Positions 1 through 35,006 are shown, counted from the first letter of the stretch. The stretch is 64,000 bases of DNA from Nitrospirota bacterium (GCA_963740085.1 CAVUCU010000004.1:288001-352000), one strand, 5' to 3'. Made by a program: numbers and translations. The notes: generated by a model from the letters alone, not told the origin.

Positions 1-84
1 GCCGACCCAACAGGCTTCGGAAGAATTTTCAGGAAGCTCACCGGTCATACGCCTTCCGCTTTCAGAAACCTGCCTCAAGAGTGA
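1..84 (+). CDS. C-terminal end of AraC-family transcriptional regulator (partial, runs off window)
   Basis: Frame 1 reads ADPTGFGRIFRKLTGHTPSAFRNLPQE*, matching the AraC second-HTH signature F.R.F+K.TG.TP..+R. Confidence 0.8.
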   Translation, partial: ADPTGFGRIFRKLTGHTPSAFRNLPQE

Positions 85-245: not shown

Positions 246-3200
246 GTGGTTAATTCGTTGAAGATTAAATTGTTGTCAAATGTTACGAGGCATCTGGCCC
301 AACTGGTCGCATCCCTTGCCGTCCTGTTTTTGGCGGCAAACGCGGCGCTGGCCGCCCCCTGTGACATTAAGAACAATGCTCCTCCGTTCATTGACCATGA
401 CCTGACCGCGAATGTCGTCACCAGCGCCAGTTATTGCGAGCTTTGTGGTTACGGCTATGTCACGACCATCATTTCGAATCCGTATTCCGGGGCGACGATG
501 TCCACTATGATTGTTACGGAGGACATGGGCGGTTCCGGGCTTACTTACGATCCCACTGCGCCGACGCCCATCAGGTATCGCGTAAACGGAGGTCCCGCAG
601 TCGCAGGGGCGGCCCCAAGCATCAGCGGCGGCGGATCATTGTTGACCTGGACTGCGACCCAGATACCGGCCCTCGGCAGCCTTGCTTCGGCTCCCGGTCA
701 GGGAAACAACGCACAGACCATTACCATTACGTTTGCCGTGAGGCGGGTTACCAATCCGGAGGGACTGGTGAGTGCTAATCGCACTATCCAGGCGGTTCTG
801 ACATTTGGTACGGATTTTGGTTGCGCTGACTCGCCGCAGAGCGTGACGGACACCCTGCCATTGCGTGAGCCGTTACCAGCCGCGGCAAAAAGCGGATGGA
901 ATTACGACGCGAATCAGCGTGAGGGGAACCACAGCAACCCGATATACGGCAATAACAACGATGATGTGGTCTGGCGTATCGACGTGAACAACACCGGGCT
1001 CGCGGGTCTTCAGGACCTGCGCTTCGACGACGTCATGCAGGCCAACAGCCTCGTCATCAATTACGCCTGCCCAACGGCCGCCAGCGCCAATGCCATCGCT
1101 TCGAACAACGGCGTTCTGCCGGGCGGCTCCCCCTGTGTCGCCGCAACCAACAACATCAACGACTTCATCGTTACGAATCCCTTCGGCGATATGGCCGTTT
1201 CCTTTGACGGCTACGAAGTAGATGTCGTTGCCGGCGGCATTGCCTCCCTCTACCTCGTTGGCAAGATAACGGCTGACGGTTCCTGCATAACCAGTAAGTC
1301 CAACACGGCGAGCGATATTCAGTGGGGTTGTGGAGCGCAGCCGCCCGCCGGGGGCATTACGGTAACGTCTTCCGGCATAAGACCAACGAATGCGATAGCG
1401 AACTTGTACACGCTCTATGGTCAACGATCTTCTCTGACGGTGCAGCGTGCGATCACCGGCATCAACACCGTGCAGCCAGTAGGCAGCAAAGGAATGGTGA
1501 CTATTACTGTCACCAACAACTCGGGAGGCACGGTCAAGAATATAATTTTGACGGACCTTCTTCCGCCTGAGTACGTCATTGACCCCACGTACTGGACAGG
1601 CGGGTTTGTCAAAAACTTACAGGTGCGATCCGCTCTCTTTGGCGTCAACACGATCCAGCCTGACTACGGCAGCTATCCTGGAATGGTTGACCGGATCACC
1701 TGGTCCAATCCGGCGCCGGGCACCCTGACGTCCACCGACCCCGCTGTTCCGCTTTCAAATACTCAGCCAATATTCACGTTAACCAGCACGACGGCCCATC
1801 CCCTGTATCCCGATCAGGTCAACATGCTGCGTGAAGGCGACGTCCTGACGGTGACCTTTCCCATTGTTCTCATTAAATCGTCCTTCTACGACAGAGTCGC
1901 GAATCTGGATGTCCGCACCGAGGCCCCGAATAGCGATCCGCCCGGAACCGATCCGGCCAATCAGGCAACGTTGACGAACAGGCTGACCGTTGAGTTTGAC
2001 ACCTTCTGCGGCACGCAAGGTCATCAGACCCTTGCCTTCACCGACAACAGGCCGGCCTTCCCGGAGGACCTGGATGTCGACATCGTAGGCACAGAGCTCA
2101 TCTTCATTCTCACCAATGATCCGAGCCAGTCGCTACCGCTCACGGTCGCTGTCACAAACAACGGCGGCCACGACGCAAGCAACGGCAACGACAGGAGCCA
2201 GTACCATACCTATGTTTCATTCGGGCAGGGTATGGTCGTATCGGTAGCGCCGGCTGCATGCACAAGAACCACAAACCCACCGCCGCTTCCTGTCTGGACG
2301 CTTCCGGTGTCCATACCGGCCACCGCAACGATTTATGACTGCACCGGGGGGCGGATAGCCCCCGGCGCGACCGTCAATTACGCCTTTCAGGTCATCAAGA
2401 ATGCCGATCCCAATGCGGCCGACGACCTGACGTTCCGTGCGGACACGGTCGGGGAGATCAGGTTATGGGACGGGACGCCTCTTTGGTTCCCGACGCCGAC
2501 CCCACGGCCGGACGGTCTCACTGATCGCGCGAACAACTACACGCTTGACGGCATACGTGCGCGCGTCATTGGCTTTAATCTCCTTAAGTCCGAGTACGGC
2601 AACTGCACGGAGAATCTGCCACCGCCCTCGCTTCCCGACCGCCTTGTACAGATCGGCGAGGACTGCACGTTCCATATCGATACGGGCGGCTGGTTCGGTT
2701 TTAAAACTCCGGGATTTACCTATATTGCGGTCCAGAAGATTCAGGTCGTGGACCAAACGCCCGCAGGACAGGGATACATATCATCTACAGATCCGTTCGC
2801 TAATATCGCTCCTTTTGGCAGCACGACCAGCGCTGTTAAAAGCATCAGTCTGAACAAGGGGAATAGCCTTGTACCGCCCGCGCCGCAACCTCTGGATGAG
2901 GGGTGGTTCAACTGGACATTTAACCAGACCGTTCCCGCGGAGCGCATCACCGTCAAGGACGAATGGTTCCGCGTTAATTACGTTGACCGCATCATGAATA
3001 ACCCTGTCGATGTCGTCGCGGTTCCTAACCTGCATGCAGCGCAAAGCACTAACATTCTTAATTCATATTTCCAGGCCGTGTTCTTCAATACTATTACGAA
3101 TATGGAGGAATTGTATGACCTGGGGCCCAACACCGTGGGCTACCCGCACGAAGCGGTTCGGCGCGTTGATCTGACTATTCAGGAACCCAAGCTCACGGTT

Positions 3201-9518: not shown

Positions 9519-9519
9519 C

Positions 9520-10974
9520 ATGGTTAAACGAATTTTCATAAGCGTCGTTCTGTGTCTCGGTTCCGTTGTTTCTGTTGCGGGAACTAACACGGCTGCTGTT
9601 CCGGCTATCCCGTTACAATCGGGATCCGGCGTGTCGGATGCGCCCGCGTTAGGCCAGGCTGTTGAAAAACAGTCAGGAGTTGATGAGCCGCGCACCTTAT
9701 GGGGACAGGGTAGTTACGCGAACGGCAAAAAGGGAGATAAGCTCGAAGTGAAAAAGGTCATGGAAAAAGCCGTGAAGACCATTAAACTTCAGAACGTCGT
9801 CCCGCCGATCCACTTTGCGTCCGGAGAAGCGCAAATCCCCGCAGGTTATGTAGAACGTCTGCGCGACATACTTGACAGCATAAAGGAAAAGACCAACGTG
9901 AGGCTTCATTTTGCAGGACACACGGATAATGCGCAGTTATTCGGAGAAGTGAAGGAAAAGTACGGCGACAATCTCACGTTATCGCGGGAACGTGCAGGTG
10001 TGACCGCGGAGCATTTTCAGAGAGCACTTCATCTTCCGCCCGAGTCGATCACGTATGAGGGCATGGGCGAATCCCAGCCAATAGCAAGTAACATCACAGA
10101 GCGTGGTAAGGCGCAGAATCGCCGGGTTGAAGTCGGGGTCTGGTATGACGAGGTCACCGATAAGCTCGTCGATAAAGAAGTAGTGGTCGCCGAGGCGATG
10201 AACCGCGTAAAGGTATGCCGCATCGAAACGGTGTGCAAAATGCGCTACAAGGAGGGGCAATCAAAGCGTGCCCGCATCAAGAACCTGGTGAAGCCGCTCC
10301 GCTTTGACGACGACACGACGGACGTTCCTGATGATTTTGTCCAGAAAGTGAAGCAGGCGCTCGGCAACCTCGCTACAAAGGGGCATGTCGTCGTCAAATT
10401 TATCGGATACACCGACAATCTTCCGCTTACGGGGCGCGCACTGCGTATTTACGGAGACGCAGTGGGGCTATCGAAGGCGCGGGCGCGCAGGGCTGCACTG
10501 GCTGTTCAGGATGCGCTTAAACTCCCCACATCCGGGATCGACGTGGAAGGCAAGGGCCCGGCTAATCCCATCGCTTCGAACGAAACCGATAAAGGCCGGT
10601 CGCTTAACAGGCGCATCGAGGTTGAATTCTGGTATGACGATGCCCTGCAGGAACTGTCGGATGAGCCACAGCTTTGCCCGGAAGCGGCCGGTGCTGAGGC
10701 CGTGACCCGCTATTACGATTCTCCGTCAGGCGGCGTCAAGCCGATACTTTTCGAGAAGGGGAAGCCGGTCATTACTTCAGAACATCTGGAGCGCCTGCGG
10801 AGCAGCATGGACGAAATTCGTGATAAAACAATGGTGCGTTTGCGCTTCATCGGTTATACCAATAATGAACGTCTCGATCGCCGTACCGCGATGGTGTACC
10901 GGGACGATATCGGTCTTTCAACCGCTCGTGCCCGACGTGCCATGAGATGCCGTCAAAGAGCAGTTGAACCTTAA
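9520..10974 (+). CDS. OmpA-family protein with tandem OmpA_C-like domains; N-terminal part of a gene frameshifted at ~10945
   Basis: Signal peptide; GHTDN…LSRERA…NRRVEV, GYTDN…LSKARA…NRRIEV, third domain GYTNN…LSTARARRAM interrupted. Confidence 0.85.
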   Translation: MVKRIFISVVLCLGSVVSVAGTNTAAVPAIPLQSGSGVSDAPALGQAVEKQSGVDEPRTLWGQGSYANGKKGDKLEVKKVMEKAVKTIKLQNVVPPIHFASGEAQIPAGYVERLRDILDSIKEKTNVRLHFAGHTDNAQLFGEVKEKYGDNLTLSRERAGVTAEHFQRALHLPPESITYEGMGESQPIASNITERGKAQNRRVEVGVWYDEVTDKLVDKEVVVAEAMNRVKVCRIETVCKMRYKEGQSKRARIKNLVKPLRFDDDTTDVPDDFVQKVKQALGNLATKGHVVVKFIGYTDNLPLTGRALRIYGDAVGLSKARARRAALAVQDALKLPTSGIDVEGKGPANPIASNETDKGRSLNRRIEVEFWYDDALQELSDEPQLCPEAAGAEAVTRYYDSPSGGVKPILFEKGKPVITSEHLERLRSSMDEIRDKTMVRLRFIGYTNNERLDRRTAMVYRDDIGLSTARARRAMRCRQRAVEP

Positions 10975-13900
10975 AGATGAACAGGCGGAGTTCGAGGGGC
11001 ATGGTTTTGTGCAGTCGGATGACGTTGTAAATACCGGTTTTGTCGAGTCCGATACGGCAAGGGTCGAAGTTAAGGTCATGTATGACGAACTCATGTCCCT
11101 TGACGATACGGAGAGAATGGATATCACACGCTTAACTCGTGAGGTCGCTCCAAAAGACCCCCTTGCGCTTAACCTCATGCGCATCACCGTCGACGGCAAG
11201 CCGGTTGACGATCCGGGCAAGAGCATCGCCGATATCGAGCGGTGTACCGACGTGGCGCTGGACAGAGCGAATGTGCAGTTGAAGTTCGATAATCTGGAGC
11301 TAAAACCCCGGCTCAATGCGACGGCCTGGCCGAATTCCATTAGCTATCAGGACGACGCGAATACCGAATACCCGGAAAACCTGATGCGGTTCCGCGCGTA
11401 CACGAACTACGCAGGGTTTATCAGGAAATCGGAAATCCGCATCTTCGGCGCGCAAGAGTCGGTCAACGGCGTACCCCTTGCGGTCATCGAGGTCAACAAG
11501 GAAGGCCTCGCAGAGTGGCAGCCGGCCTTCACCGAATACAGGGCCCCGCGTGTCTCATTGAAATACGTGCTGCGTGTTTACGACAACGATAATCATTTCG
11601 ACGAGACGAAGCCGCTGCCGATCTGGATCGTTGACAGACAGCCTGCGGAAATACAGGATCACGACGCAGAAAAGGAACTGCTGGTCGGTTACGGCGAGAA
11701 TCACCTCGCGGCAGACAATATTCCGAAGAAAGGCGGGACAATCAAGGTCAGTGGCAGCGAGGTCCCGGCCGATCATGCGGTGTTCGTTGCCGGCCGCTCA
11801 GTGCCGGTCGGGGAGGATGGCAAGTTCGTCACGGAGGAGATCCTTCCGTCCGGCATGCACACCGTCGAGGTGGCGATACTCGATCAAGCGGGTAACGGCG
11901 ACCTGTTCCTGCGCGACCTGGATCTCCCAAGGAACGACTGGTTTTACGTTGGCATCGCAGATGTCACTCTTGCCCGGGATTCCACGACCGGCCCGGCGCG
12001 GCTCGTCACCAGCGATCAGACACACTACAACAACGAGCTTAGCTACGATGGGCGTCTGGCCTTCTACACCAAGGGCAAGTTCGGCAACGGATGGGAACTG
12101 ACCTCAAGCGCTGACTCGCTCGAAGGACCGATAAAGGACATCTTTAGAAACGGGGGGGCCAATTCGCCTGACTCTTTGTTCCGGAGCATCAACCCGCAGT
12201 ATTTTTATCCTACGTATGGTGATGACGGCACCGTGGAGGAGGGGGCGCCGACCCTGGGCAAGCTCTATTTCAAAATGAAGAAGGACGATAGCTACGGACT
12301 GTGGGGCAACTTCAAGATAGGATACAACGACAACGACCTGGCGCAGGTAGACCGCGGATTGTACGGTGCGAACGTCCATTATCAGCCGCTCGCGACAACA
12401 AGCTTTGGCGAGAAGCGGTTCATGATGGACGGCTTTGCCGCGCAGCCGGGAACGGTCGGGACACGTGAGGAGTTTCTGGGAACCGGCGGGTCGCTCTATT
12501 ATTTGCATCATCTGGACGTCCTTACCGGCTCCGAGCGCTTGCGCATCGAGGTGCGCGACAAGGATTCGGGCATCGTCACCGCCGTGAAGGATCTGACGCC
12601 GAACCTCGATTACACCGTCGATTACCTGCAGGGGCGCATTTTGCTTTCGCAACCCCTGTCGCCAACAGCAAGCGACAACATGCTGGTGACGAGCGACACC
12701 ACTTCCGGCAATCTGGTCTATCTGGTCGTGCGGTACGAATACGAGCCCTTCGCCGGCGACACCAATAGCATGAGCCTTGGCGGTCGCACCCATGTATGGC
12801 TTTCCGATTACGTGAAACTTGGTGCTATTTTCAGCAAGGAGGGGGATTCGGAGAACCCGAGCGGGCTTCGTGCCGCCGATCTTACCTTAAGGAAGAGCAC
12901 CCTGTCCTGGGTGAAGGTGGAGACGTCCAGGAGCAAAGGCCCTGGCCTTACCTCCCTTTCTTCCGGCGATGGCGGATTCACCTTTTCTTCGACGTGCTCC
13001 AGCTTTACCGGCACCACGGCCAATCCGGCATGTTCCTCCCTGGGAAACTCCACATCCGTCTCTGCCGGCGCTTACCGGGTCGACACCAGCATCGGTTTTA
13101 ACGATTTCATCAATGGCGCGAACGGACAGTTGACGCTCTACACGCAGAGCATTGATTCGGGCTATTCGGCCCCGGGCCTTGAGACGGCCACGGATACCAG
13201 GCAGTACGGCGGTACCTTGCATGCGCCGGTAACGGACAGAATCGATGTGGCTGCCAAGGTTGACAAAACAACACGACAGCAGGGCTTGGATACCGATTCG
13301 TCCGAACTCGATGTCAATTACCGCTTGGCCGAGCATTGGACCATGAGCCCCGGAGTAAGGCAGGACAGCCGTGTTGACCACTCTCCGGTCGTGCCGCCGA
13401 CGCAGACGGAGGGTGATCGCACGGATGCCGCCGTTCGGGCGACCTACGACTCCAGGGAGAGATGGAGCGCATACGGTTTTGTGCAGGACACGGTCAAAAA
13501 GACCGGCGACCGCGAAGACAATGGCCGCGTGGGAACGGGCGGCGAGTACCGCGTCACCGACCGATTCAAGGTTAATGGCGAAGTGTCTTCCGGCGATCTC
13601 GGAGGCGCGGGCAAGGCCGGCACGGAGTATCTTTATTCCGACCGGACCAGCATATACCTGAATTACGTGTACGACAACGAGATTCCGGACAACGGCATCC
13701 GGTCGAACAAAGGGAATATGGTTACCGGGTTCAAGACCCGATATTCGGACACGACGAGCATTTATGCGGAAGAAAAATATACGCACGGGAACGTGCCGAC
13801 GGGGCTTACCCATTCCGCCGGTGTCGACCTCGCGCCCTTTGATCACTGGAACTTCGGCGCCAATGTGGATTTCGGAACGCTCAGAGACCCTCTTACCGCA

Positions 13901-14701
13901 GCGCATCTCGACCGCAAGGCGGCAGGTGTCAGGGCAGGTTACAGCGACGGAAGGCTTACCTGGACGACAGCATTCGAGTACCGAATTGACAAGACCGAGA
14001 CCATAAATCCGGACATGAACACGAGCACGGTGGATAGGGACAGCTGGCTGGTCAAGACCGGCTTCAAATACCAGTTAGACCCCTCGTCGCGTCTCCTCGG
14101 GAGACTGAATTACGCCGAGAGCAAGAGCCCGGGCAGTTTCTACGACGGCAAATACACGGAAGCGGTCCTGGGTTACGGCTATCGGCCCGTGATGAACGAT
14201 CGTCTCAACACGTTGTTCAAATATACGTACTTTTACAATCTCCCGAGCACGGGTCAGGTCACCGATACGGTCATCAATACGTCCGCCAATACCGTCACGA
14301 ATACGGCCGCGGACTTCATAGAGAAGAGCCATATCTTGTCGCTGGATGTGATGTATGACCTCACCCAACGCTGGACCATCGGGGGCAAATACGCCTATCG
14401 CCTGGCGCAGGTGAGCCTGGATCGGGTCAATCCCGAGTATTTTGACAGCCGGGCTTCCCTGTATATCGTGCGCGCCGACTGGCAATTCGTCCACAGCTGG
14501 GACTCCCTGATCGAGGGCCGACTGCTCGACCTGCCCGATGCCCAGGACCGGCTCAGCGGGGTATTGGTGGGCATCTATCGACATCTGGGCAATTACATCA
14601 AGCTGGGGGTCGGCTACAACTTCAGCAAATTCTCGGACGATCTGACCCAACTGGATTACAAACATCAGGGTCTGTTCATCAATTTGATTGGGGAAATATA
14701 A
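10964..14701 (+). CDS. C-terminal part of the same gene: periplasmic domains plus very large outer-membrane beta-barrel
   Basis: Continues the third OmpA domain (DAVKEQLNLKDEQAEF…ARVEV); alternating aromatic beta-strand pattern over >600 aa; ends GLFINLIGEI; no own signal peptide. Confidence 0.85.
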   Translation: MNLKDEQAEFEGHGFVQSDDVVNTGFVESDTARVEVKVMYDELMSLDDTERMDITRLTREVAPKDPLALNLMRITVDGKPVDDPGKSIADIERCTDVALDRANVQLKFDNLELKPRLNATAWPNSISYQDDANTEYPENLMRFRAYTNYAGFIRKSEIRIFGAQESVNGVPLAVIEVNKEGLAEWQPAFTEYRAPRVSLKYVLRVYDNDNHFDETKPLPIWIVDRQPAEIQDHDAEKELLVGYGENHLAADNIPKKGGTIKVSGSEVPADHAVFVAGRSVPVGEDGKFVTEEILPSGMHTVEVAILDQAGNGDLFLRDLDLPRNDWFYVGIADVTLARDSTTGPARLVTSDQTHYNNELSYDGRLAFYTKGKFGNGWELTSSADSLEGPIKDIFRNGGANSPDSLFRSINPQYFYPTYGDDGTVEEGAPTLGKLYFKMKKDDSYGLWGNFKIGYNDNDLAQVDRGLYGANVHYQPLATTSFGEKRFMMDGFAAQPGTVGTREEFLGTGGSLYYLHHLDVLTGSERLRIEVRDKDSGIVTAVKDLTPNLDYTVDYLQGRILLSQPLSPTASDNMLVTSDTTSGNLVYLVVRYEYEPFAGDTNSMSLGGRTHVWLSDYVKLGAIFSKEGDSENPSGLRAADLTLRKSTLSWVKVETSRSKGPGLTSLSSGDGGFTFSSTCSSFTGTTANPACSSLGNSTSVSAGAYRVDTSIGFNDFINGANGQLTLYTQSIDSGYSAPGLETATDTRQYGGTLHAPVTDRIDVAAKVDKTTRQQGLDTDSSELDVNYRLAEHWTMSPGVRQDSRVDHSPVVPPTQTEGDRTDAAVRATYDSRERWSAYGFVQDTVKKTGDREDNGRVGTGGEYRVTDRFKVNGEVSSGDLGGAGKAGTEYLYSDRTSIYLNYVYDNEIPDNGIRSNKGNMVTGFKTRYSDTTSIYAEEKYTHGNVPTGLTHSAGVDLAPFDHWNFGANVDFGTLRDPLTAAHLDRKAAGVRAGYSDGRLTWTTAFEYRIDKTETINPDMNTSTVDRDSWLVKTGFKYQLDPSSRLLGRLNYAESKSPGSFYDGKYTEAVLGYGYRPVMNDRLNTLFKYTYFYNLPSTGQVTDTVINTSANTVTNTAADFIEKSHILSLDVMYDLTQRWTIGGKYAYRLAQVSLDRVNPEYFDSRASLYIVRADWQFVHSWDSLIEGRLLDLPDAQDRLSGVLVGIYRHLGNYIKLGVGYNFSKFSDDLTQLDYKHQGLFINLIGEI

Positions 14702-14711
14702 AGGCAAGCAC

Positions 14712-14789
14712 TAACCACAGAGAGCACTGAGGGATCTCTGGCGAAAACCGGAACTAAACTCAAGAAGTTCTCTGTGTTCTCTGTGGTTA
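14712..14789. repeat. REP-like palindromic element
   Basis: Arms taaccacagagagcactgag / ctctgtgttctctgtggtta are near-perfect reverse complements. Confidence 0.8.
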
Positions 14790-14806
14790 ATTTTTAGGAG
14801 GCAGCC

Positions 14807-15319
14807 ATGTTCAACATTTTAAGAGGGTTCATTCTATCCATTGTGATTCTGATGCTGAGCTTCCCCGCCACTGCGGAGGAAGTCTCCAGGGAACAGATCA
14901 AGGGTCTGGATGAACAGGTTCAGGAAATCAAGACCGATGCCCTGAGTATTGCGGCAGAACTGAATCAGCTTGAAGAGAAGCTGCTGTATCCGTCCAATAC
15001 GCAGATCGCGGTATTCGCATCACTGGTCAGCGGCGAAACCTTTCGTCTCGACTCGGTCGAGATCCAGTTGGACGGCAAGCCGGTTGCCCATCACCTTTAC
15101 ACGTTCAAGGAACTCGAAGCCTTGCAAAAAGGAGGGGTGCAGCGCATCTATACCGGCAATGTCCGGTCCGGGGAGCATGAGCTCCAGGTCTTTGTCATAG
15201 GTAAAACCGGGGGAGGCGCCGATTTCCAACAATCGGAGCGCTTCAAGGTCAATAAGGATGCGGGCCCCAAGATCGTGGAAATATCTCTGGCCACCCAAAG
15301 CATTACCCTGAGACAATGA
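14807..15319 (+). CDS. Secreted periplasmic protein, coiled coil plus beta-sandwich, associated with TPR/TolQR clusters
   Basis: RBS aggagg; signal peptide (…PATA/EE); heptad region then FRLDSVEIQLDG…GNVRSGEHEL; no HTH. Confidence 0.75.
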   Translation: MFNILRGFILSIVILMLSFPATAEEVSREQIKGLDEQVQEIKTDALSIAAELNQLEEKLLYPSNTQIAVFASLVSGETFRLDSVEIQLDGKPVAHHLYTFKELEALQKGGVQRIYTGNVRSGEHELQVFVIGKTGGGADFQQSERFKVNKDAGPKIVEISLATQSITLRQ

Positions 15320-15468
15320 AATTCCTCTCAAAAGGGGAAGAAAATTTTACTGCGAAGTCGCGAAGGACGCTAGGGAAATCCTGTTTAGATATAAACCAAC
15401 GCTTTACTTTTCTTCGCGACCTTAGCGCCTTGGCGGTTCCAATGTTTAGTTTCGGTTTGTCGGGATTA
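15316..15468. repeat. ~150-bp palindromic intergenic element, copy 1 (carries a 54-aa ORF 15316-15480)
   Basis: Aligns end to end with 21531-21688 (atgaaattc…gcgaagtcgcgaagg…cttggcggttccaa…tgtc.g.atta); internal inverted repeat. Confidence 0.8.
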
Positions 15469-15483
15469 GGTGATAGGTAAACC

Positions 15484-17376
15484 ATGAACAGGCTTTTCAC
15501 AGTATTGACAATTCTGATACTCTCTGCGTCTTCGGCGCCTGCCGCTCCGTCCGCGCCGAAAGAGCTGAAGGACCTCTATTTCGGAGAGGCCCTGTATTAT
15601 GCATTTCAGGGGGAATGGTTCGATGCCATCGCGCGGCTCGACACTGAGCTCATGCAGCACCGTGGGCTCGATGAACCCGAACGCGACACCCTTCATTACC
15701 ATATCAACCAGGCGGAGTTTGACGTGGGCGATTTCGAATTGGCATACCGGATGCACCAGCGCGCCGGGCGCGCCATCAAGGCGGTGATCGAGGGTAATGT
15801 CGAGGAGCCGGTGCGCAACGAGGCCATTTTCCGCCTGGCCCGGATTTACTTCCAGAAAGACCAGCCGCAGAACGCCCTGCAGGCCGTGGAACGCATCAAG
15901 GGCGCCGTTCCCGGGAAAATTCGCGATGATCTTTCTTTCCTGCGGGCGCAAATTTTTATGGCCAACGGCCGCTTCGAGGATGCGGCCCGCATCCTGAAAG
16001 AACTCCAGGGCGCGAAGAGCCTGGAAGGTTTTACCACGTACAACCTCGGGATCGCGCTTCTCAGGGGCGGGAAGGTGAGGGAAGGGCGTGAGTATCTCGA
16101 CCGTACCGGCCGGATCGGGAGCGACAATCCGGCCACGCTGGCGATCAAGGACAAATCGAACCTCGTTCTGGGCGACAAGCTGCTGAGTGAAAATAATTTT
16201 GAGGGCGCCAAGGAGGTGCTCGATAGGGTGCGCTTGAGCGGCCCGTTTTCCAACCGCGCGCTGCTCGGTTCGGGTTGGGCCGACGCCTCCCGGGAAAACT
16301 TCGAAAGTGCCCTGGTGCCGTGGACCATCCTGTCCGAACGCGAGGTCACTGACCAGGCGGTGCAGGAAGGCCTGCTTGCCGTCCCCTATGCCTATGCCAA
16401 GCTCGGTGTGTACAGCCAGGCGGCGCTGAAGTATGGCAGTGCCCTGGAGGCGTTCGGCAAGGAGATCGACAAGCTCGGCGCCTCGATCACCTGCATCCGC
16501 GAAGGCAAATTTCTGAAAGCTCTCGTTCGGGAAGAACTGAAGCAGGATGCCAACTGGGTCGTCAAGCTGCGTGAACTGCCGGAAACGCCCGAGACCTTCT
16601 ACCTGCTCGATTTGATGGCCTCCCATGATTTTCAGGAATCACTGAAAAATTATATTGACCTTGAGCAGCTCCGCAAAAAACTGGAGGTCTGGTCAGAAGA
16701 CCTGGTCGCCTTCGAGGATATCATCGAGCAGCGCCGGGCCTACTACCAGCCGCTGCTGCCCACGATCGACCGGGAATTCAGACAGCTCGACTCGCAGATG
16801 CAGCTGCGGCTGGAGCAGCGAGACCACATAGAACAGCGGTTGCAGGCCATGCTGGTGGCGCCGAGGCCAGACTACCTGGCGACCGCGCCGGAGCGGATTT
16901 TCGGGGAGCACCTTGCACGGTTGGAGAAGGCCATTTCCGCCGGAGGCGGTGCGGCGGCCGGCGACGAAGTCAGGGGCCGCGTCAGGCGTCTGCGGGGAGT
17001 GCTGGACTGGAAGATATATACGGAATATGACCAGCGCTTCACTGCGGCCCATAAAAATCTTCGGGACCTGAATCGAGTCATCGACGTGCTGCACAATCGG
17101 TACACTTCCTTTGTGCGTACACGCCAGGCGGCCACGCAAAGCTATGAAGGTTATGACGAAGTGATCCGCATCCAGCGGGCCCGGATCACGACCGCGCAGG
17201 AAAAAGTGCGGCTCCTATCGGCGCGCCAGGGGCAAATGCTCGAAGTCATGGCCGTGAATGAACTCACCAGGCGGCGCGATCGGCTTGAAGAGATGCAGGT
17301 CAAGGCGCGCTTCGCTCTGGCGGACAGCTATGACCGTGCCACCAGGGCCCAGGCCCAGGAGAAGACAGAGCGATGA
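15484..17376 (+). CDS. Secreted TPR / coiled-coil protein (GltC-like position)
   Basis: Signal peptide; helical repeats (YNLGIAL, ALLGSGWA); C-terminal coiled coil. Confidence 0.8.
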   Translation: MNRLFTVLTILILSASSAPAAPSAPKELKDLYFGEALYYAFQGEWFDAIARLDTELMQHRGLDEPERDTLHYHINQAEFDVGDFELAYRMHQRAGRAIKAVIEGNVEEPVRNEAIFRLARIYFQKDQPQNALQAVERIKGAVPGKIRDDLSFLRAQIFMANGRFEDAARILKELQGAKSLEGFTTYNLGIALLRGGKVREGREYLDRTGRIGSDNPATLAIKDKSNLVLGDKLLSENNFEGAKEVLDRVRLSGPFSNRALLGSGWADASRENFESALVPWTILSEREVTDQAVQEGLLAVPYAYAKLGVYSQAALKYGSALEAFGKEIDKLGASITCIREGKFLKALVREELKQDANWVVKLRELPETPETFYLLDLMASHDFQESLKNYIDLEQLRKKLEVWSEDLVAFEDIIEQRRAYYQPLLPTIDREFRQLDSQMQLRLEQRDHIEQRLQAMLVAPRPDYLATAPERIFGEHLARLEKAISAGGGAAAGDEVRGRVRRLRGVLDWKIYTEYDQRFTAAHKNLRDLNRVIDVLHNRYTSFVRTRQAATQSYEGYDEVIRIQRARITTAQEKVRLLSARQGQMLEVMAVNELTRRRDRLEEMQVKARFALADSYDRATRAQAQEKTER

Positions 17377-20300: not shown

Positions 20301-20654
20301 AAGTTCGTTCCCGCCCGCTACGATAAGCCGGAAGAGGAGAGTCCGGTCATCACTCAGTTGGATCGTTACCTGTTCGCCATTGAACGTCCGGAGCTGTCCG
20401 TGCAGGCGCCCGAACGGGCGGCGGCCTCCGCCGGCCCTGGGCCGGCGGAGGCAGCCGAACCAGGCGAGGCCCAGAATGCTGAAAGGGCCGTGGAACCGAA
20501 GCCGGGTGAGACCCAGGAAACGGTTAAGAACGTAGAGCCGAAGCATGATGCGAAACCGGCAGAGACCAGAGATGCTGCAAAGGTAGGGGAAACGGCGCAG
20601 GACGTCCAGGACGGAGGCGACAAGGTCACTCCACCTGATGCGGCGGTGGAATAA
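17373..20654 (+). CDS. Large TPR lipoprotein (GltD/AgmU-like)
   Basis: Lipobox LLAAC; many TPRs (VLYQMSRAY, ALYKLGWTFY); C-terminal YELAIEEQAYPFEDKA region; acidic Pro/Ala tail. Confidence 0.85.
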   Translation: MNRIRLFILAVPMLLAACQSMGDRDTIAKLRDMHIEIKEEEIEGGLDKAMESYQHFLEEAPHSALTPEAIRRLADLKIAKEYGTLTRGAEPAGRAPALPAPELATSPKVASIAGTPSDRISAMIPVRDESEADFEKRAAQGPPAGGTAAAAEGAAAGSDDLERASAREAIALYAKLLNDYPLYERNDQVLYQMSRAYEELGQVEEAMTVMDRMVREFPRSRYIDEVQFRRGEYLFTRRRYLDAENAYGSIVTIGASSSYYQLALYKLGWTFYKQELYDEALDRFIALLDHKVKERYDFAQTGDQLERKRIDDTFRVISLSFSNLGGANSVVEYFIRNGKRSYEDGVYSNLGEFYFDKRRYADAAATYNAFVSRNPFHKLSPQFAMRVIEIHLAGAFPSLVIDAKKKFAGIYGLKAEYWRHFEPGARPEVLVWLKTNLTDLAKHYHALYQSPQQIKDKKTNFEEALHWYREFLTSFPTDPESPAINYLLADLLLENRSFDLAAVEYEKTAYEYPRHERSSQAGYAAIYAYRQHLAAVAAAAKDQVKSEVVRSSLKFADAYPEHEKAAIVLGAAADDLYNMRDYEQALATAQKLNKVFPGADKEVKRGAWDVIAHSSFELHRYSEAEAAYVSLLGFVPEGDKERSALTDNLAVSIYKQGEEANARKDYRTAADHFLRVGVMAPASKVRPSAEYDAAAALIGLKDWKMSATVLTGFRDKFPGHALQPDVTKKIAYVYKEDGQLAQAANEYERIERESQDDEVRREALLTAADLHEKAGNSDRALEVYRRYVGYFPHPVEPNLETRNKIAETLKKKKERDIYLAELKQIVAIDAGAGGERTPRTRYLAGKAALALAEQTFDRFAEVKLVKPFETNLRKKKDLMKVATQQFNKLLDYEVGEATAAATFYLAEIYANFSKALLESERPEGLAPVEMEQYELAIEEQAYPFEDKAIAMHKSNLELISRGVYNEWIDKSLQKLAKFVPARYDKPEEESPVITQLDRYLFAIERPELSVQAPERAAASAGPGPAEAAEPGEAQNAERAVEPKPGETQETVKNVEPKHDAKPAETRDAAKVGETAQDVQDGGDKVTPPDAAVE

Positions 20655-20680
20655 GGTTTAACGAGGGAGGTTTAAGCTCT

Positions 20681-21520
20681 ATGAATAAAGAATTCGAAAA
20701 CAAAGGAAGTCTCCGCGTGCCCTGCACTCGCGCTGGCGCACTCGTAAACGCTGGGTACAGGCAGAGCCGCAGAGAACGCAAAGAAAAGCTTTACGTCTTG
20801 GTTCTTTTCTTAATAAAGCAAAACGCTTTAAAGTCTTTCTTTGCGGCTTTGCGTCTCAGCGTGGCCCGCTTGATCGGCCATTGCGCGAAAAACTCTTTTG
20901 TATTTGGACTTGGGTTCGTACTCGCGGTTTTTTTCGGGTGCGCAACCAGCGTCAAGGTCACGCAGCAGCCCGTTACAAATCAGGCACCATCCGTGACAAG
21001 ACTCATGGATGGCCGGGAAGGCTTTATCATCACGGAAGTTCCCAAAATGGATGAGGCGTCGCGCAGAGACTTTGATCGCGCTGTCGCCATGCTGAAGGAC
21101 CAGGACTATGGCCAGGCCATCGATCTTCTGGAAAAGGTCATCAAGCAGTCACCGGGCATCTCCGCTCCTTATATCGACATTGCGATTGCCTATCAGCGAA
21201 TCGGCAAACCGGGGCAGGCCGAGGAGCATCTTAAAACAGCGCTGCAGCTGTTTCCCGATCACCCCGTGGCATGCAATGAATACGGTTTGTTGTATCGCAA
21301 ATCCGGACGATTTACCGAGGCGCGGGCGATTTATGAAAAAGCGATCGCGCGTTTTCCGGATTTTTATCCGTTGCACAGAAATCTCGGGATCCTCTGTGAT
21401 CTGTATCTCGATGACTCCGAATGCGCGCTCAAACAATTCGAAATTTACAGCGAGAAGATGCCTGCGGACGCACAGGTCAAAATCTGGATTGCCGAGCTGC
21501 GCACGCGGCTCGGACGTTAG
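20681..21520 (+). CDS. TPR lipoprotein (GltE/AglT-like); alternative TTG start at 20870
   Basis: Lipobox VFFGC; TPRs ACNEYGLLYRKSG, HRNLGILCDLY. Confidence 0.85.
   Translation: MNKEFENKGSLRVPCTRAGALVNAGYRQSRRERKEKLYVLVLFLIKQNALKSFFAALRLSVARLIGHCAKNSFVFGLGFVLAVFFGCATSVKVTQQPVTNQAPSVTRLMDGREGFIITEVPKMDEASRRDFDRAVAMLKDQDYGQAIDLLEKVIKQSPGISAPYIDIAIAYQRIGKPGQAEEHLKTALQLFPDHPVACNEYGLLYRKSGRFTEARAIYEKAIARFPDFYPLHRNLGILCDLYLDDSECALKQFEIYSEKMPADAQVKIWIAELRTRLGR
20760..20863. repeat. REP-like palindrome within or just before the 5' end of the TPR lipoprotein gene
   Basis: ccgcagagaacgcaaagaaa … tttctttgcggctttgcg arms. Confidence 0.7.
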
Positions 21521-21530
21521 GTACTGAGGA

Positions 21531-21688
21531 ATGAAATTCATTTCAACGGGGGAAAAATATTACCGCAAAGTCGCGAAGGCCGCAAAGGAAATCATGTGTA
21601 GGTTTAAAACCAGAATCTTTATGCTTTTCGTCGCGAGCTTGGCGTCTTGGCGGTTCCAAGGTTTAGATTCCGGCCTGTCCGAATTAAA
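21531..21688. repeat. ~150-bp palindromic intergenic element, copy 2 (carries 60-aa ORF 21531-21713)
   Basis: Homologous to 15316-15468; accgcaaagtcgcgaaggccgcaaag / gtcgcgagcttggcgtcttggcggt. Confidence 0.8.
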
Positions 21689-21705
21689 TGAAAAGGAGGA
21701 GGAAT

Positions 21706-21996
21706 ATGTATAAAAGTCTGTTGCTTTGGCTGTGTCTTCTTCTGGCACTGCTCAGCACGGCCATGGCTGAGGACAAAGAACCGGCGGCCAAAGAACAGGC
21801 GGCCAAACAACTTTCCGGCATGTCCATCGTCGGTAACGATGACGCCCCGAAAGCCCTGTATATTGTGCCGTGGAAAAGTTCCGAAATCGGTGTGGAGGCA
21901 AATTTGAGCATGATGTTAACCGACAGTGCCGTGCCGGTGGATCGAGATGTGTTTATGCGGCAATTGGATTTTTACGGGGTCAGCACCAAAAAATAA
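21706..21996 (+). CDS. Small secreted protein (GltF/CglF-like position)
   Basis: RBS aggaggagg; signal peptide; GMSIVGNDDAPKALYIVPW motif; lies between TPR and TolQ genes. Confidence 0.7.
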   Translation: MYKSLLLWLCLLLALLSTAMAEDKEPAAKEQAAKQLSGMSIVGNDDAPKALYIVPWKSSEIGVEANLSMMLTDSAVPVDRDVFMRQLDFYGVSTKK

Positions 21997-22029
21997 CTTC
22001 GTTGTCTAGTCAGCGAAAAGGAGGAAGAA

Positions 22030-22725
22030 ATGTTTATCATAAGGTTTTTCCAGAGTGGTGGGTTGTTTATGTTCCCGATTCTACTTACGCTTTTGGTCGG
22101 TCTGGCTATCGCGTTTGAACGCTGGGTTCACTTGAAACGCGTCAGGGACGCGAACAAAAAAATATGGGACTCGCTGTATCCGACGCTGGAAAAGGGAGAG
22201 TTCGATAAAGCCCGGGAAATGGCCAACAAGGACAAATCAACTATGGCGCAAATGCTGGGGATGGGATTAGCGCGCCAGGGGGCGGTTAGGCGACGGGAAG
22301 ACATAGAGATCGCCATGGAAGAGAGCATGATGGAGATAATTCCTCAATTGGAAAAGCGCACGCCGTACCTGGCACTGCTCTCAAATATCGCCACCCTGTT
22401 TGGATTGCTAGGCACCATCATGGGTCTTATCATGGCCTTCGCCGCGGTTGCCACTGCGAGCCCCGCCTCGAAGGCAGCCCTGCTCGCGGCCAGCATTTCG
22501 GAGGCCATGAACTGTACTGCCTTTGGTCTGATGTCCGCGATCCCACTTCTGCTGCTCCATGCCCGCCTGACAACAACTACGGGTCAGATTGTGAACAGCC
22601 TGGAGATGGCATCGGTTAGAGCGCTCAATTCTATCTCAAGTTTTGCCAAGCACCAATTTGACAGATCTCCAATCTTATCAGGCGCCGATTTAACAGGAGC
22701 TGATCATGGCCAGACGATTTCATAG
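22030..22725 (+). CDS. MotA/TolQ/ExbB proton channel (AglR-like)
   Basis: GGLFMFPI; NIATLFGLLGTIMGLI; ISEAMNCTAFGL. Confidence 0.93.
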   Translation: MFIIRFFQSGGLFMFPILLTLLVGLAIAFERWVHLKRVRDANKKIWDSLYPTLEKGEFDKAREMANKDKSTMAQMLGMGLARQGAVRRREDIEIAMEESMMEIIPQLEKRTPYLALLSNIATLFGLLGTIMGLIMAFAAVATASPASKAALLAASISEAMNCTAFGLMSAIPLLLLHARLTTTTGQIVNSLEMASVRALNSISSFAKHQFDRSPILSGADLTGADHGQTIS

Positions 22726-23218
22726 CAAAAGGGGACGGGGACAACCATCAGATTTCGATACGGATATCATGCAGGTCATCAACCTGACACCGATGATGGA
22801 TATCCTTACCGTTCTGGTGGTCTTTCTGCTCATCACTGCAGTCTTTATGAGTCTTACGATCGAGGAATTGAGTGTCCCGACCGCCGCAGGCGGATCTTCG
22901 AACCAACCGAATTTCGCCATCGAGGTGATTGTCCGCAAGGCGGGACTGCAGATTGCCAACGGGAGGTCCGTGGAGGCTACGATTCCGAAAAAAGACGATC
23001 AATATGATATTGAGCTACTGTCCAAAATGCTCCTTCGTCTGAAGGCCCAGTACCCGGAGAAGGAGGACGCGACGGTTTTGATGGAGCCGGACATCAAGTA
23101 CGACAATCTGATTGAGATCATGGATGCGGTACGTGAAACAGAAGTGCGGGCGGAAGGGAGCGAAGAGGTCAAAAAAATAGAGCTCTTTCCAAAGATAGCC
23201 ATAGGAGACGCGCCATGA
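22706..23218 (+). CDS. ExbD/TolR family protein (AglQ/S-like)
   Basis: INLTPMMDILTVLVVFLL with conserved TM Asp; YDNLIEIMDAVR. Confidence 0.92.
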   Translation: MARRFHSKRGRGQPSDFDTDIMQVINLTPMMDILTVLVVFLLITAVFMSLTIEELSVPTAAGGSSNQPNFAIEVIVRKAGLQIANGRSVEATIPKKDDQYDIELLSKMLLRLKAQYPEKEDATVLMEPDIKYDNLIEIMDAVRETEVRAEGSEEVKKIELFPKIAIGDAP

Positions 23219-23712
23219 GAGACAGCAGACGAATGAAAAGGATGGAGCGCAACAACAGAAAAGGTGATATTAAGGGTCTTGGTATAAACCTGATCCCGAT
23301 GATGGATGTTCTTTGCGTTCTGGTGTTCTTTCTGCTGTTTCACTCATTCAACAGTACTTTGCCGGATGCTCAGATCGCGCTGCCCGCTTCCATTGTCGAG
23401 ACCAGGCCAAGGGAAACAGTGGCGATCGTGGTCAGCCCCGAAGTCGTAATGGTTCAGGGAGAAGCCGTGATCAGCACCGCCAAACTTCTCGATGACAGCA
23501 TTGGGATAGTTTATGAGGTAAGAGAGCGACTGGAACAACTTCGCACTATTATCGAGACCAGCTCTAATGCGGTTGCCGAAAGCAGGGAAATCACCCTCCT
23601 TGCCGATAAATCGATTCCGTTCAAAGTGCTTAAAAAAATAATGTCGACCTGCGCTGCTTCTGGATACGGAAAGCTTTCCCTCGCCGTCATCCAGAAGGAG
23701 GCAAAAAGATAG
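23215..23712 (+). CDS. Second ExbD/TolR family protein (AglS/Q-like)
   Basis: INLIPMMDVLCVLVFFLL; ADKSIPFKVLKKIMSTC..GY. Confidence 0.92.
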   Translation: MRDSRRMKRMERNNRKGDIKGLGINLIPMMDVLCVLVFFLLFHSFNSTLPDAQIALPASIVETRPRETVAIVVSPEVVMVQGEAVISTAKLLDDSIGIVYEVRERLEQLRTIIETSSNAVAESREITLLADKSIPFKVLKKIMSTCAASGYGKLSLAVIQKEAKR

Positions 23713-23722
23713 TGGGGTTGCC

Positions 23723-25093
23723 GTGAATACATCCATATTAGAAGAGGAATTGGCACACCTGAACGCACAGACCGAGCAAGTCCGGCAAAAGCACGAGGCG
23801 CTGGAAAATGAGTTGCGCGTCGTCGAGGCAGAGCTGGAAACGTTTTCCGCCGATAGACAACGGTTCGATGCATTGCGGGACGTCTGCCATGCGCTCGACA
23901 AGCTAGGGGAACTGAAAGCGGATGAACTCTTTTGGGATGATGTCAAAAATGCCCCCGGACACGTGGAACGGGCGAGGAGCCGGGTTGACCGCTTTGAGGG
24001 GGAGATAAGCGGGATTCTGGAAAAACAGGCATCTTTCAAAGGGCAGATCGACCGATGTCTCGATGAACTGGACATCCTCTATGAAGAAGTACGTGATGCT
24101 TACGCGCGCGAAGCACGGCGCGAGGAAGAATACGTCATAGAGCGGGAGATTTCGTCCATTCCTAATCGCTCGATGCTCATGCCGTGGACCAAAGAGGCTG
24201 AGAGCGAAAGACGTTTCCGCCGAGCCCTGGTTGTCGCTTTCTCATTCTATATCGTTTTTGGCTCTGTGGTTAGCCTGTGGAAACTGCCGCCGCCGGTCCG
24301 CCCGGCCGTGGCTGTGGTTCCGGAACGTCTGGTCTCTATGGTGAGAAAGTTGCCGCCCAAGCCTGAACCGCCGCCTGAACGCCGCAAAGAAGAAAAGAAG
24401 GGAAAAGTGCCGGAGAAAAAGCAGGAAGAACGACCCAAAGCAACCACCGAAGAATCGCAGACTGCGCGCAAAAAAGCGGAGACCACGGGTGTTCTGGCTT
24501 TCAAGGAGGCTTTTAAAGATCTGATGGACGAAACTCCAGCCGCACGGCTCGGCGCCGAGGCGCGTCTGAGCAACCAGTCGGCCGTGGCGTCCGGTCAGGC
24601 CCGGGCAGGCCGGTCAATCATCTCTATGCAGTCGACGGCCGGTTCCAGTGGCGGGATCGGCAATGCCGCAGTCAGCCGCAATGTCGGTAGTGGAAACGGT
24701 AATCGTATTGGCGGCGTCGGGTTAACAAGGGTAGAAAGTACTGTTGCGGGACTGGCTGAAGGGGCGAGGCCGCTGAGCTCCGGACACGGGCCGTCGCGAA
24801 CCGATGAAGAGATCCAGATCGTCTTCGATAAATACAAGGCGACGCTCTATCGGATGTACAATGCCCAATTACGCAAGAACCCCACCCTGCGCGGCAAGAT
24901 TCTCCTGCGCATCACTATCGAGCCGGGTGGCGAAGTCTCCGGATGTACGGTGCAGTCGACCGAGCTGGCCTCGCCGGAGCTTGTGGCCCAGGTTGTGGAG
25001 CGAGTCAAGAAGTTCAATTTTGGACCGAAGGTGGATGTTCCCAAGACCACGATTCTGTACCCGATTGATTTCCTGCCTGGAGGCAGCGCCTGA
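23723..25093 (+). CDS. TonB-like protein with AgmX/PglI-type C-terminal domain (GltG-like), N-terminal coiled coil
   Basis: Single TM, Pro/Lys/Glu linker, Gly-rich segment, YNAQLRKNPTLRGKILLRITIEPGG…YPIDF. Confidence 0.88.
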   Translation: MNTSILEEELAHLNAQTEQVRQKHEALENELRVVEAELETFSADRQRFDALRDVCHALDKLGELKADELFWDDVKNAPGHVERARSRVDRFEGEISGILEKQASFKGQIDRCLDELDILYEEVRDAYAREARREEEYVIEREISSIPNRSMLMPWTKEAESERRFRRALVVAFSFYIVFGSVVSLWKLPPPVRPAVAVVPERLVSMVRKLPPKPEPPPERRKEEKKGKVPEKKQEERPKATTEESQTARKKAETTGVLAFKEAFKDLMDETPAARLGAEARLSNQSAVASGQARAGRSIISMQSTAGSSGGIGNAAVSRNVGSGNGNRIGGVGLTRVESTVAGLAEGARPLSSGHGPSRTDEEIQIVFDKYKATLYRMYNAQLRKNPTLRGKILLRITIEPGGEVSGCTVQSTELASPELVAQVVERVKKFNFGPKVDVPKTTILYPIDFLPGGSA

Positions 25094-26251: not shown

Positions 26252-26337
26252 GGGGCAGCGGGTAGAGGCAGAGATGACTTTACCGTTGTTCCCGACTAAA
26301 TATCCGGAATATGCGTTAATTATTTCGTTTGTATTAG

Positions 26338-34987: not shown

Positions 34988-35006
34988 AAGAAACGAAGAG
35001 GGGGGG

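Follow-up and report, generated by a model that had tools for sequence, protein, structure and literature searches.

Positions 246-25093 of the DNA analysed here, a stretch of 64,000 nucleotides (the window) from a Nitrospirota bacterium (GCA_963740085.1, CAVUCU010000004.1:288001-352000), contain in one run the genes for a putative giant fibrillar adhesin, for an outer-membrane protein with OmpA-like domains and a very large barrel (the OmpA-barrel protein), and for a nine-gene block related to the core of the Myxococcus Agl-Glt gliding machinery. This raises the question of whether these parts belong together and, if so, on what the motor acts. Comparison with other genomes revealed that the adhesin/barrel unit is inherited together with a dedicated motor of the Glt type.

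The source genome comprises 3.46 Mb in 7 contigs, the window being G000:C4:288001-352000. Listing of the open reading frames (ORFs) together with Pfam and NCBIfam scans showed that all long ORFs with family matches in this region lie on the + strand, where they form 11 tightly spaced genes, several of which overlap by 4-20 bases. An earlier reading of this DNA, made from the sequence alone (the sequence-only reading), had described such an unbroken run of overlapping or closely packed genes, and the scans bear it out. The nine core genes encode, in order, a secreted protein of 170 amino acids (aa) named p170, three tetratricopeptide repeat (TPR) proteins of 630, 1093 and 279 aa, a small secreted protein named p102, a TolQ-type channel, two TolR-type subunits and a GltG-like transducer.

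Linkage of the adhesin unit to the motor block

A scan of one genome per species gave at least 590 stretches with a relative of the OmpA-barrel protein, and 77 loci were kept. Outside the gamma- and beta-proteobacteria these loci came from Nitrospirota, Desulfuromonadales/Geobacter, Desulfobacterales and similar lineages, with five carrying other labels. Among them, all nine core genes were found directly downstream of the adhesin/barrel unit in each of the 29 loci with about 10 kb of downstream sequence, and at least two of the genes for p170, the 630-aa TPR protein and the 1093-aa TPR protein followed the barrel in 34 of 34 loci with at least 2.5 kb downstream. The gamma/beta-proteobacterial loci had a downstream core in 0 of 17 cases; in all five gamma/beta genomes that were fetched, the nine-gene block directly adjoined the adhesin gene on its upstream side. 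Block and adhesin share a strand in four of these genomes and are divergent in the fifth, a Curvibacter metagenome-assembled genome (MAG). A GltD-like gene (52-59% identity) was also present in all of five further gamma/beta genomes. In one of these, its distance from the adhesin on a shared contig is as expected; in the other four the adhesin reaches contig ends, so that the contigs of the two genes cannot be related to each other.

Co-occurrence was then counted in two sets of genomes. Among 201 Nitrospirota, the barrel (at least 61% identity) was found in 14, one of them partial, and the 1093-aa TPR protein (at least 56%) in 17; 13 genomes had both, and in 12 of these 13 the two genes were adjacent on one contig. 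In Gammaproteobacteria, the barrel (E ≤ 1e-100) was found in 24 of 401 genomes and a GltD-like protein (E ≤ 1e-60) in 76 of 400, the latter being present in 14 of 24 barrel-positive genomes versus 62 of 376 barrel-negative ones. All six Gammaproteobacteria with a GltD-like protein of at least 47% identity had a barrel of at least 47% identity, and in five of them the two genes were 15-22 kb apart on one strand. The sequence-only reading had made its proposal depend on linkage of the adhesin and barrel genes to the motor genes in other genomes; they are linked, and this in three gene orders.

Table 1. Features of the locus in window coordinates
Feature	Coordinates	Strand	Remarks
Response-regulator/AraC-type regulator gene, 3' end	1..84	+	adjoins the adhesin gene on its upstream side
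Giant fibrillar adhesin (putative), 3090 aa	246..9518	+	signal-like N-terminus, conserved ~600-aa head, variable stalk, conserved C-terminal 330 aa
OmpA-barrel gene, 5' part	9520..10974 (ORF start 9502/9520)	+	signal peptide, OmpA-like domains 1, 2 and first half of 3 (Pfam, NCBIfam)
Single extra base splitting the OmpA-barrel gene	10945..10946	+	comparison with P0001 and public contigs
OmpA-barrel gene, 3' part	10964..14701	+	rest of OmpA-like domain 3, Ig-like region, ~920-aa barrel module (11933-14698)
p170, secreted, 170 aa	14807..15319	+	no Pfam/NCBIfam match; first of nine core genes
TPR protein, 630 aa, periplasmic	15484..17376	+	GltC-like position; TPR_16, TPR_19, TPR_2
TPR lipoprotein, 1093 aa	17373..20654	+	GltD-like position; TPR_6, TPR_2; lipobox visible
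TPR lipoprotein, listed as 279 aa	20681..21520	+	GltE-like position; TPR_12, TPR_2, TPR_1; lipobox visible
p102, small secreted protein, 102 aa	21688..21996	+	no family match; 'additional gene' within the core
TolQ/ExbB-type stator channel	22030..22725	+	AglR position; MotA_ExbB (PF01618), 84.4 bits
ExbD/TolR-type stator subunit 1	22706..23218	+	ExbD (PF02472), 58.1 bits
ExbD/TolR-type stator subunit 2	23215..23712	+	ExbD (PF02472), 50.3 bits
GltG-like transducer, 456 aa	23723..25093	+	coiled coil (cytoplasmic), one transmembrane helix, Pro/Lys-rich linker, TonB_C/AgmX-PglI tail
Putative lipoprotein, 312 aa	25313-26251		after the GltG-like gene
Multi-pass membrane protein, 326 aa	26338-27318		after the GltG-like gene; weak DUF5683

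The adhesin and the OmpA-barrel protein

In all 68 loci whose upstream sequence extends over 700 bases or more, the OmpA-barrel gene was immediately preceded by the C-terminal part of the adhesin, and in loci L067, L068 and L078 both are fused into a single ORF. Single fused ORFs also occur in four Nitrospirota of the same family, namely in genomes G097 (4549 aa), G105 (4425 aa), G149 and G161, the last two with open frames of 4655 and 4291 aa. The fused proteins of G097 and G105 align with the window adhesin up to residue 3081-3084 and then with P0001, a near-identical public relative of the OmpA-barrel protein, from residue 15-17. At this junction the end of the adhesin passes into the mature N-terminus of the partner, with loss of the hydrophobic core of the internal signal peptide. 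The view of the sequence-only reading that the two proteins belong together is thereby upheld: to judge from their sequences, the adhesin and its OmpA-barrel partner form a single unit, since they are fused in relatives. The constant adjacency and the fusions make this unit resemble a split autotransporter, whose halves would meet in the periplasm.

The OmpA-like and barrel ORFs had been taken for separate genes, and this did not hold. The third OmpA-like domain runs across the ORFs 9502-10974 and 10964-14701, the reading frame being cut by a 1-base insertion. P0001 is one uninterrupted chain of 1726 aa, and the remaining 119 listed homologues are all single proteins, mostly of about 1700 aa, some shorter or partial. 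The extra base was absent from the contigs in three of the three public runs with cover (X1, X2 and X5), two of which are at least 99% alike but of low depth. On this comparison the two ORFs are one 1726-aa gene, and the extra base at 10945/10946 is probably a consensus error of the assembly. Note that upstream of the window, in the stretch L002 (C4:270001-289000), PutA is found in two ORFs (L002:12857-13519 and 13531-15762) and a transketolase-like E1-beta gene (L002:10322-11080) lacks the beginning of its pyrimidine-binding domain; along with the split at 10945/10946, these findings suggest single-base insertion or deletion errors in the assembly.

The adhesin contains the domains DUF11 (157.9 bits), DUF7507, DUF7619 and SdrD_B according to Pfam, it matched the NCBIfam models TIGR01451 (250 bits) and TIGR04226 (isopeptide domain, 166 bits), and the scans revealed isopeptide domains of the RrgB type. 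Its N-terminal hydrophobic segment resembles a Sec signal by eye. The C-terminal 330 aa show 54-96% identity in 62 loci, and the middle varies. Modeling of these last 330 aa using AlphaFold 2 (mean predicted local distance difference test, pLDDT, 86.4) led to two immunoglobulin-like (Ig-like) domains of the pilin/SdrD kind followed by a terminal domain of beta-alpha-beta-alpha-beta order. The closest folds were EbpB and LrpA (Z 13.3), and pilins and SdrD gave Z 12-13; the rows of this fold search covered residues 1-229 of the tail, so that the terminal domain lies outside it. The last domain may be a degenerate OmpA-like module, to judge by eye and from the beta-alpha-beta-alpha-beta order in the model, but hhalign gave only E 0.018 and a probability of 2.5%.

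DUF11 ('CLIPPER'), DUF7507 and SdrD_B are described in the available part of a preprint (bioRxiv 10.1101/2025.04.25.650565) as stalk domains of extracellular fibrillar adhesins. The signal-like segment and the tandem DUF11/DUF7507/SdrD_B stalk of the 3090-aa protein are those of a fibrillar adhesin, and its anchor would be provided by the OmpA-barrel protein, as the fusions suggest. No Pfam match to an autotransporter beta-domain, to RTX repeats or to a TonB-dependent receptor or plug was found among the cluster proteins, in agreement with the sequence-only reading, which had noted a giant protein free of autotransporter barrel and RTX repeats in a cluster free of TonB-dependent receptors. In Alcanivorax nanhaiticus (L048:12000-21530) a second adhesin-like gene starts downstream of the OmpA-barrel gene, with 36-50% identity in head and middle.

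The barrel module

The OmpA-barrel protein has three OmpA-like domains; two stretches match the Pfam family OmpA (79.1 bits), and TIGR03350 is passed with 142.4 bits (cut-off 139.8). For the 1245-aa barrel ORF, the sole family match in Pfam and NCBIfam was a weak one to OMP_b-brl. AlphaFold 2 modeling of the barrel module on an 84-row alignment led to a model with a pLDDT of 87.1 and a predicted template modeling (TM) score of 0.83, almost all beta, with about 50 strands and an Ig-like insert near residues 172-272. Porin alignments cover residues 1-922 of this model, which suggests that it is closed as one single barrel.

Foldseek matched the barrel with LptD, TonB-dependent transporters, MtrB, SlpA and SprA at TM-scores of 0.16-0.24, those of BtuB and Cir being 0.16-0.18 on the query. 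The VIA matches included porins of 16-18 strands (Z up to 14.2), ushers (about 12.9) and SprA (12.2 over 549 residues at a root-mean-square deviation of 14.1). The beta-domains of BrkA and Hbp aligned with about 200 residues of the 922-residue model (Z 9.2 and 9.1, respectively), a resemblance of the generic barrel kind. When the PDB was searched with a profile of the barrel, there were 0 hits. A specific structural relative was accordingly dismissed, the matches being those of large barrels in general; the model supports a large outer-membrane barrel and nothing more specific.

Using the last 922 residues as the query, 3106 cluster representatives were found at E ≤ 1e-3 and 860 at E ≤ 1e-30, and the match was almost always located at the C-terminal end of the protein. 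This family of about 920 aa has no Pfam model and no solved relative. Of its 150 best representatives, 26 are proteins of 2134-6889 aa with a C-terminal barrel. A Pfam scan of 10 of these 26 revealed DUF11 in 9 and SdrD_B in 8 ahead of the barrel, and in 3 of the 10 the order was DUF11/CarboxypepD_reg, OmpA, barrel. The barrel module of one gammaproteobacterium (G365:C2:461371-463989) forms the end of a frame that is open over 11777 aa. Also considered was a docking motif, confined to motor-linked members, at the N-terminus of the mature barrel protein; it was rejected, as a simple pattern recovered it from only 22 of 116 long members and a related motif is seen by eye in the short motor-less class.

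The motor block

The content and order of the block, namely three TPR genes, a small gene, TolQ, two TolR and GltG, agree with Fig. S1 of Luciano et al. 2011 (PMC3169522), so that its assignment to the Agl/Glt core in the sequence-only reading stands. The block is not undescribed, having been in print since that work. The available text of PMC3169522 reports gltC, gltD, gltE, gltG, aglR, aglQ and aglS clustered with one small extra gene as a 'core complex' (Group B), found in Geobacter, one beta-proteobacterium, several gamma-proteobacteria and Fibrobacter, where its function was unknown; the extra gene has, according to the same text, no homologue in Myxococcales or Bdellovibrionales. The locus tags in Fig. 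S1 form uninterrupted runs of eight in which one tag is unlisted, and p102, found in 32 loci, fits this gap by its position. The present cluster shares with this core the eight consecutive genes in the same order, the AgmX/PglI-tailed TonB-like gene at the end, and the lineages Geobacter and gamma- and beta-proteobacteria. It differs in having a ninth gene, that for p170, and in its association with the giant adhesin and its OmpA-barrel partner, which the available text of PMC3169522, including supplementary file 1, does not mention.

p170 accompanies the core block in every gene order and is found in paralogous cores at 33-34% identity. The 630-aa TPR protein shows 55-94% identity in 37 loci and was matched by no GltC model. 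The 1093-aa TPR protein passes the cut-off of the YbgF/CpoB-type model TIGR02795 (117.8 versus 90.1) and has 76.2 bits to a BamD-like model. The true start of the 279-aa TPR lipoprotein is probably later than listed. The name 'GltF-like', given to p102 in the sequence-only reading, had size and position as its sole basis.

Both TolR-like subunits have an Asp in the transmembrane segment, as seen by eye. The GltG-like protein matched NF033768 with 58.3 bits (cut-off 40) and TonB_C with 18.5 bits. The genome contains three MotA/ExbB/TolQ genes in all and the GltG-like protein as its sole protein with an AgmX tail; the motor thus appears dedicated to this cluster. Scores for the Myxococcus equivalogs were far below the cut-offs, namely 30.8 bits versus 225 for GltE (a weak match of the 279-aa protein to NF033758), 29.1 versus 650 for GltG and 34.3 versus 450 for GltJ. 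Since these cut-offs are unreached, the cluster is a relative of the gliding machine and not the gliding machine itself.

Neighbouring genes and limits of the cluster

The regulator gene upstream of the adhesin (L002:17224-18084) contains Response_reg and HTH_18/HTH_AraC domains. Homologues of it lie upstream of the adhesin in the related Nitrospirota loci L067, L099/L105, L100, L103, L066 and L006. Between one and three response-regulator/AraC genes are found directly 5' of the adhesin, for instance at L103:3015-5305, L105:9390-10253 and L067:738-2338. These genes are candidate regulators of the cluster.

The two ORFs that follow the GltG-like gene were considered as parts of the system and rejected; they are kept (93%) only in G043, of the same genus, and are not found after GltG in G052 or G097. 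Position 25093 is therefore the right end of the cluster, as the sequence-only reading had placed it, both following ORFs being conserved only within the genus. Further on, a gene for a patatin-like phospholipase and a transposase-like gene (HTH and rve_3) lie on the opposite strand (27819-30107), and the G+C content past the cluster (30000-42000) drops from about 0.55-0.60 to 0.43-0.49. A promoter and terminator scan of 9000-28000 gave 13 versus 8.6 ± 2.8 and 22 versus 19.9 ± 5.1 in shuffled sequence, respectively, and is uninformative on operon structure.

Comparison with known systems

The Tol-Pal system consists of a TolQ/TolR stator, the transducer TolA, TolB, Pal and CpoB. The cluster is similar to it in its TolQ/TolR-like stator, its TolA/TonB-like transducer, a CpoB-type TPR protein and an outer-membrane partner with OmpA-like wall-binding domains. 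It differs in that there is no TolB, that the equivalog cut-offs are unreached (the YbgF/CpoB repeat model alone being passed), and that its outer-membrane partner combines a giant barrel with an adhesin. The type 9 secretion and gliding machinery combines a proton-driven stator-type motor (GldLM), the very large barrel SprA and the giant repeat adhesin SprB. The same general combination of stator-type proton motor, very large barrel and giant repeat adhesin is seen here; however, no sequence match to SprA, PorV or GldK/L/M/N and no Por_secre_tail were found in the cluster, and PorW/SprE scored 42 bits versus 250.

In type 5 secretion, intimin has a periplasmic wall-binding LysM domain, and the barrels of autotransporters have 12 strands. 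Like type 5 proteins, the fused relatives of the adhesin unit have a Sec signal, a passenger of Ig-like repeats, a periplasmic wall-binding domain and a barrel in the same polypeptide. Unlike them, the barrel has about 920 aa and about 50 predicted strands instead of 12, the order is passenger, three OmpA-like domains and barrel, and two genes are used in the window. No Pfam match to an autotransporter or intimin-type beta-domain was found in the adhesin or the OmpA-barrel protein at E ≤ 0.01. A published Gram-negative adhesin with a DUF11 stalk and a C-terminal OmpA-like anchor (2129 aa) is close in length to the fused members of 2061-2134 aa; the available part of the published account mentions neither a barrel nor a motor.

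The Agl-Glt machinery of Myxococcus, as described in the available parts of PMC11761067 and PMC9946355, likewise has a TolQR-type motor, a GltG transducer, a TPR scaffold, one or more outer-membrane barrels and a surface adhesin. Its outer-membrane platform in M. xanthus is given there as GltA/B/H/K, with CglB as the adhesin (PMC11761067, PMC9946355). No above-cut-off match to GltA/B/H/K, CglB, GltI or GltJ was found among the cluster proteins, the search being confined to the cluster. The GltG of M. xanthus has an FHA domain (PMC11761067, available text), whereas the transducer described here has a coiled coil and no FHA match. The barrel and adhesin of the cluster are also unrelated in sequence to the Myxococcus proteins and far larger, three OmpA-like wall-binding domains are present, and the cluster has no cytoplasmic GltI/AglZ/MglA part. 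To our knowledge, gliding has not been reported for the organisms that carry the cluster.

Proposed role of the motor and alternative explanations

The best explanation, to which we assign a probability of about 0.55, is that the proton-driven motor applies force to the peptidoglycan-anchored anchor of the adhesin and is accessory to display rather than an export engine, a mechanism which we infer. The conserved C-terminal domain of the adhesin would lie in the periplasm beside the mature N-terminus of its partner, and the stalk would reach the surface through the barrel or be held by it. The three OmpA-like domains and the terminal domain would stay periplasmic and fasten the anchor to the cell wall. 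GltG and the TPR scaffold, whose likeliest element would be the 630-aa TPR protein in the GltC position, would pass the force of the TolQ/TolR-type stator to the wall-anchored barrel-adhesin anchor, and this force would move, load or expose the anchor or free it from the wall. In the M. xanthus model, as the available text of PMC11761067 presents it, the link from GltD, GltE and GltG to the adhesin and the outer-membrane barrels is made by GltC, which grips the barrels at their periplasmic ends. The action of the motor on the anchor would be analogous to that of Agl-Glt on its outer-membrane platform and adhesin, and to that of Tol on Pal. The isopeptide-type stalk fits a load-bearing fibre. 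A complex prediction for the 630-aa TPR protein (22-630) and the N-terminal part of the OmpA-barrel protein (23-413), entered as alignments and made without controls, returned a score of 0.00, which is no verdict and counts neither way.

Several points weigh against this explanation or against a strict dependence of the two modules on each other. We infer the topology, the effect of the force and the contact between motor and barrel, and equally the surface exposure of the adhesin, its threading through the barrel and the closure of the barrel. Taxon labels were assigned manually on the basis of record titles, the genomes are for the most part MAGs and, where related, not mutually independent, and the identity tiers for 'orthologues' were set after the lists had been viewed. 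The modules are also found apart. Carriers of a barrel subtype (G079, G060 and G203) gave 0 matches to the AgmX/PglI tail family and no GltD-like match; in G079, a one-contig genome of the same family, a 2582-aa adhesin gene overlaps that of a 1424-aa partner with one OmpA-like domain and the barrel, and there is no core within 13-17 kb. Conversely, no orthologous barrel was found in 4 of the 17 core-positive Nitrospirota (G133, G153, G129 and G174). The flanks of the G133 core, 11-12 kb on each side, contain no adhesin, barrel or giant ORF; the contig of G153 ends just beyond p170. The barrel is much rarer in Gammaproteobacteria than GltD-like proteins are (24/401 versus 76/400), and therefore most cores have other partners.

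Most GltD-like proteins of Gammaproteobacteria have identities of 30-43% ('type 2') and are not encoded close to the barrel of the adhesin unit. The type-2 core of G005 (L094:7850-17230) is flanked by a 1172-aa PD40/PKD/VWA protein (L094:4181-7699, - strand) and a 356-aa OMP_b-brl barrel (L094:18420-19490, - strand), which recall GltA/B and the VWA adhesin CglB of Myxococcus. From the separate occurrence of the modules and these flanks, the core appears to be a motor module with varying outer-membrane partners, of which the adhesin-OmpA-barrel pair would be that of one core subtype. One Thiohalomonadaceae MAG has two tandem cores (L089:94-7681 and 8091-18329), a type-2 core in which p170 and p102 were undetected and a type-1 core, followed by the adhesin.

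The sequence-only reading had the motor energise, among other options, export of the adhesin through the barrel. Such a secretion engine, which would be a counterpart of the type 9 system with SprA, GldLM and SprB, is unlikely, in our view. The adhesin has a Sec signal, the cluster is without another outer-membrane exporter, motor and cargo are tightly syntenic, the periplasm has no ATP, and SprA is among the structural matches of the very large barrel (Z 12.2, 549 residues, root-mean-square deviation 14.1); those matches, however, are generic (TM 0.16-0.24). Export is the weaker option because related adhesin-OmpA-barrel pairs occur in genomes without an AgmX-type transducer, as in the three subtype carriers described above with the 2582- and 1424-aa pair of G079. 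The window genome itself has a second, fused member of 2061 aa on contig C1 (L109:8861-15046, - strand), with DUF11, CarboxypepD_reg, OmpA and the N-terminal part of the barrel at 26-30% identity, and no core genes were found within the 20 kb fetched around it. Such motor-less units could still use another energiser, but their existence places work on the anchor above export.

Somewhat less probable still is a specialised system of the Tol-Pal kind, in which the motor would load, release or relocate the OmpA-like domains for the integrity of the envelope and would not act on the adhesin itself. This overlaps the explanation by force on the adhesin anchor and differs from it mainly in the purpose of the force. 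The TolQ/TolR-like stator, the TonB/TolA-like transducer, the 1093-aa TPR protein with its YbgF/CpoB score (117.8 versus 90.1) and a partner with three Pal-like OmpA domains would suit it; yet the cluster has no TolB-like gene, the equivalog cut-offs are missed by TolQ (73.6 versus 221) and TolR (42.7 versus 127.3), and the genome has two other MotA/ExbB/TolQ genes. That the pair and the core are separate systems which happen to be co-inherited as neighbours, with no shared function, is highly improbable: each module does lack the other in some genomes, but their adjacency is kept through three gene orders across Nitrospirota, 'delta'-type lineages and gamma/beta-proteobacteria, and they co-occur in two independent genome samples. 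We consider it just as improbable that the giant protein is not a surface adhesin and forms a periplasmic or inner-leaflet fibre tied to the wall and the barrel. The contiguity of the adhesin C-terminus with periplasmic OmpA-like domains in the fused forms speaks for such a fibre, whereas DUF11, DUF7507 and SdrD_B are extracellular stalk domains according to the available part of bioRxiv 10.1101/2025.04.25.650565, the closest folds are those of Gram-positive pilins and SdrD, and a 3000-aa fibre of Ig domains would far exceed the width of the periplasm.

Significance of the adhesin-motor linkage

The core block has been published, and so has a DUF11 adhesin with an OmpA-like anchor, which was drawn once. 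No account of the 920-aa barrel family, of its fused and split forms or of its linkage to the core complex was found in the literature searched, subscription journals and bioRxiv supplements lying outside this search. The adhesin-OmpA-barrel partner of the core appears to be new. In addition, a large family of C-terminal barrel modules is defined (the 3106 cluster representatives), which anchors giant adhesins in fused or split form.

A wider reading is possible, and we put it forward only tentatively: the pair may be the cargo of one major type of Glt core, together with which it would form a widespread machine, driven by the proton motive force, that secretes the giant isopeptide-stabilised adhesin through a barrel of a new, very large class, or else drags or tensions it, in at least several hundred species of Nitrospirota, Desulfuromonadota-type lineages and gamma/beta-proteobacteria, and which would be ancestral to the gliding machines through a swap of the outer-membrane module. 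If this were true, the machine would be a functional counterpart of the type 9 system with SprB or of the focal adhesions of myxobacteria.

The function of the core complex outside the gliding myxobacteria has been open since 2011, and a defined outer-membrane cargo makes this question testable. The carriers include cultured organisms, namely an Alcanivorax isolate among the loci, and Sulfurifustis variabilis and Thiohalomonas denitrificans, whose proteins are among the matches. Should the adhesin prove to be moved or loaded by the motor, it would join Agl-Glt and type 9/SprB as a third independent example of motor-driven surface adhesins.

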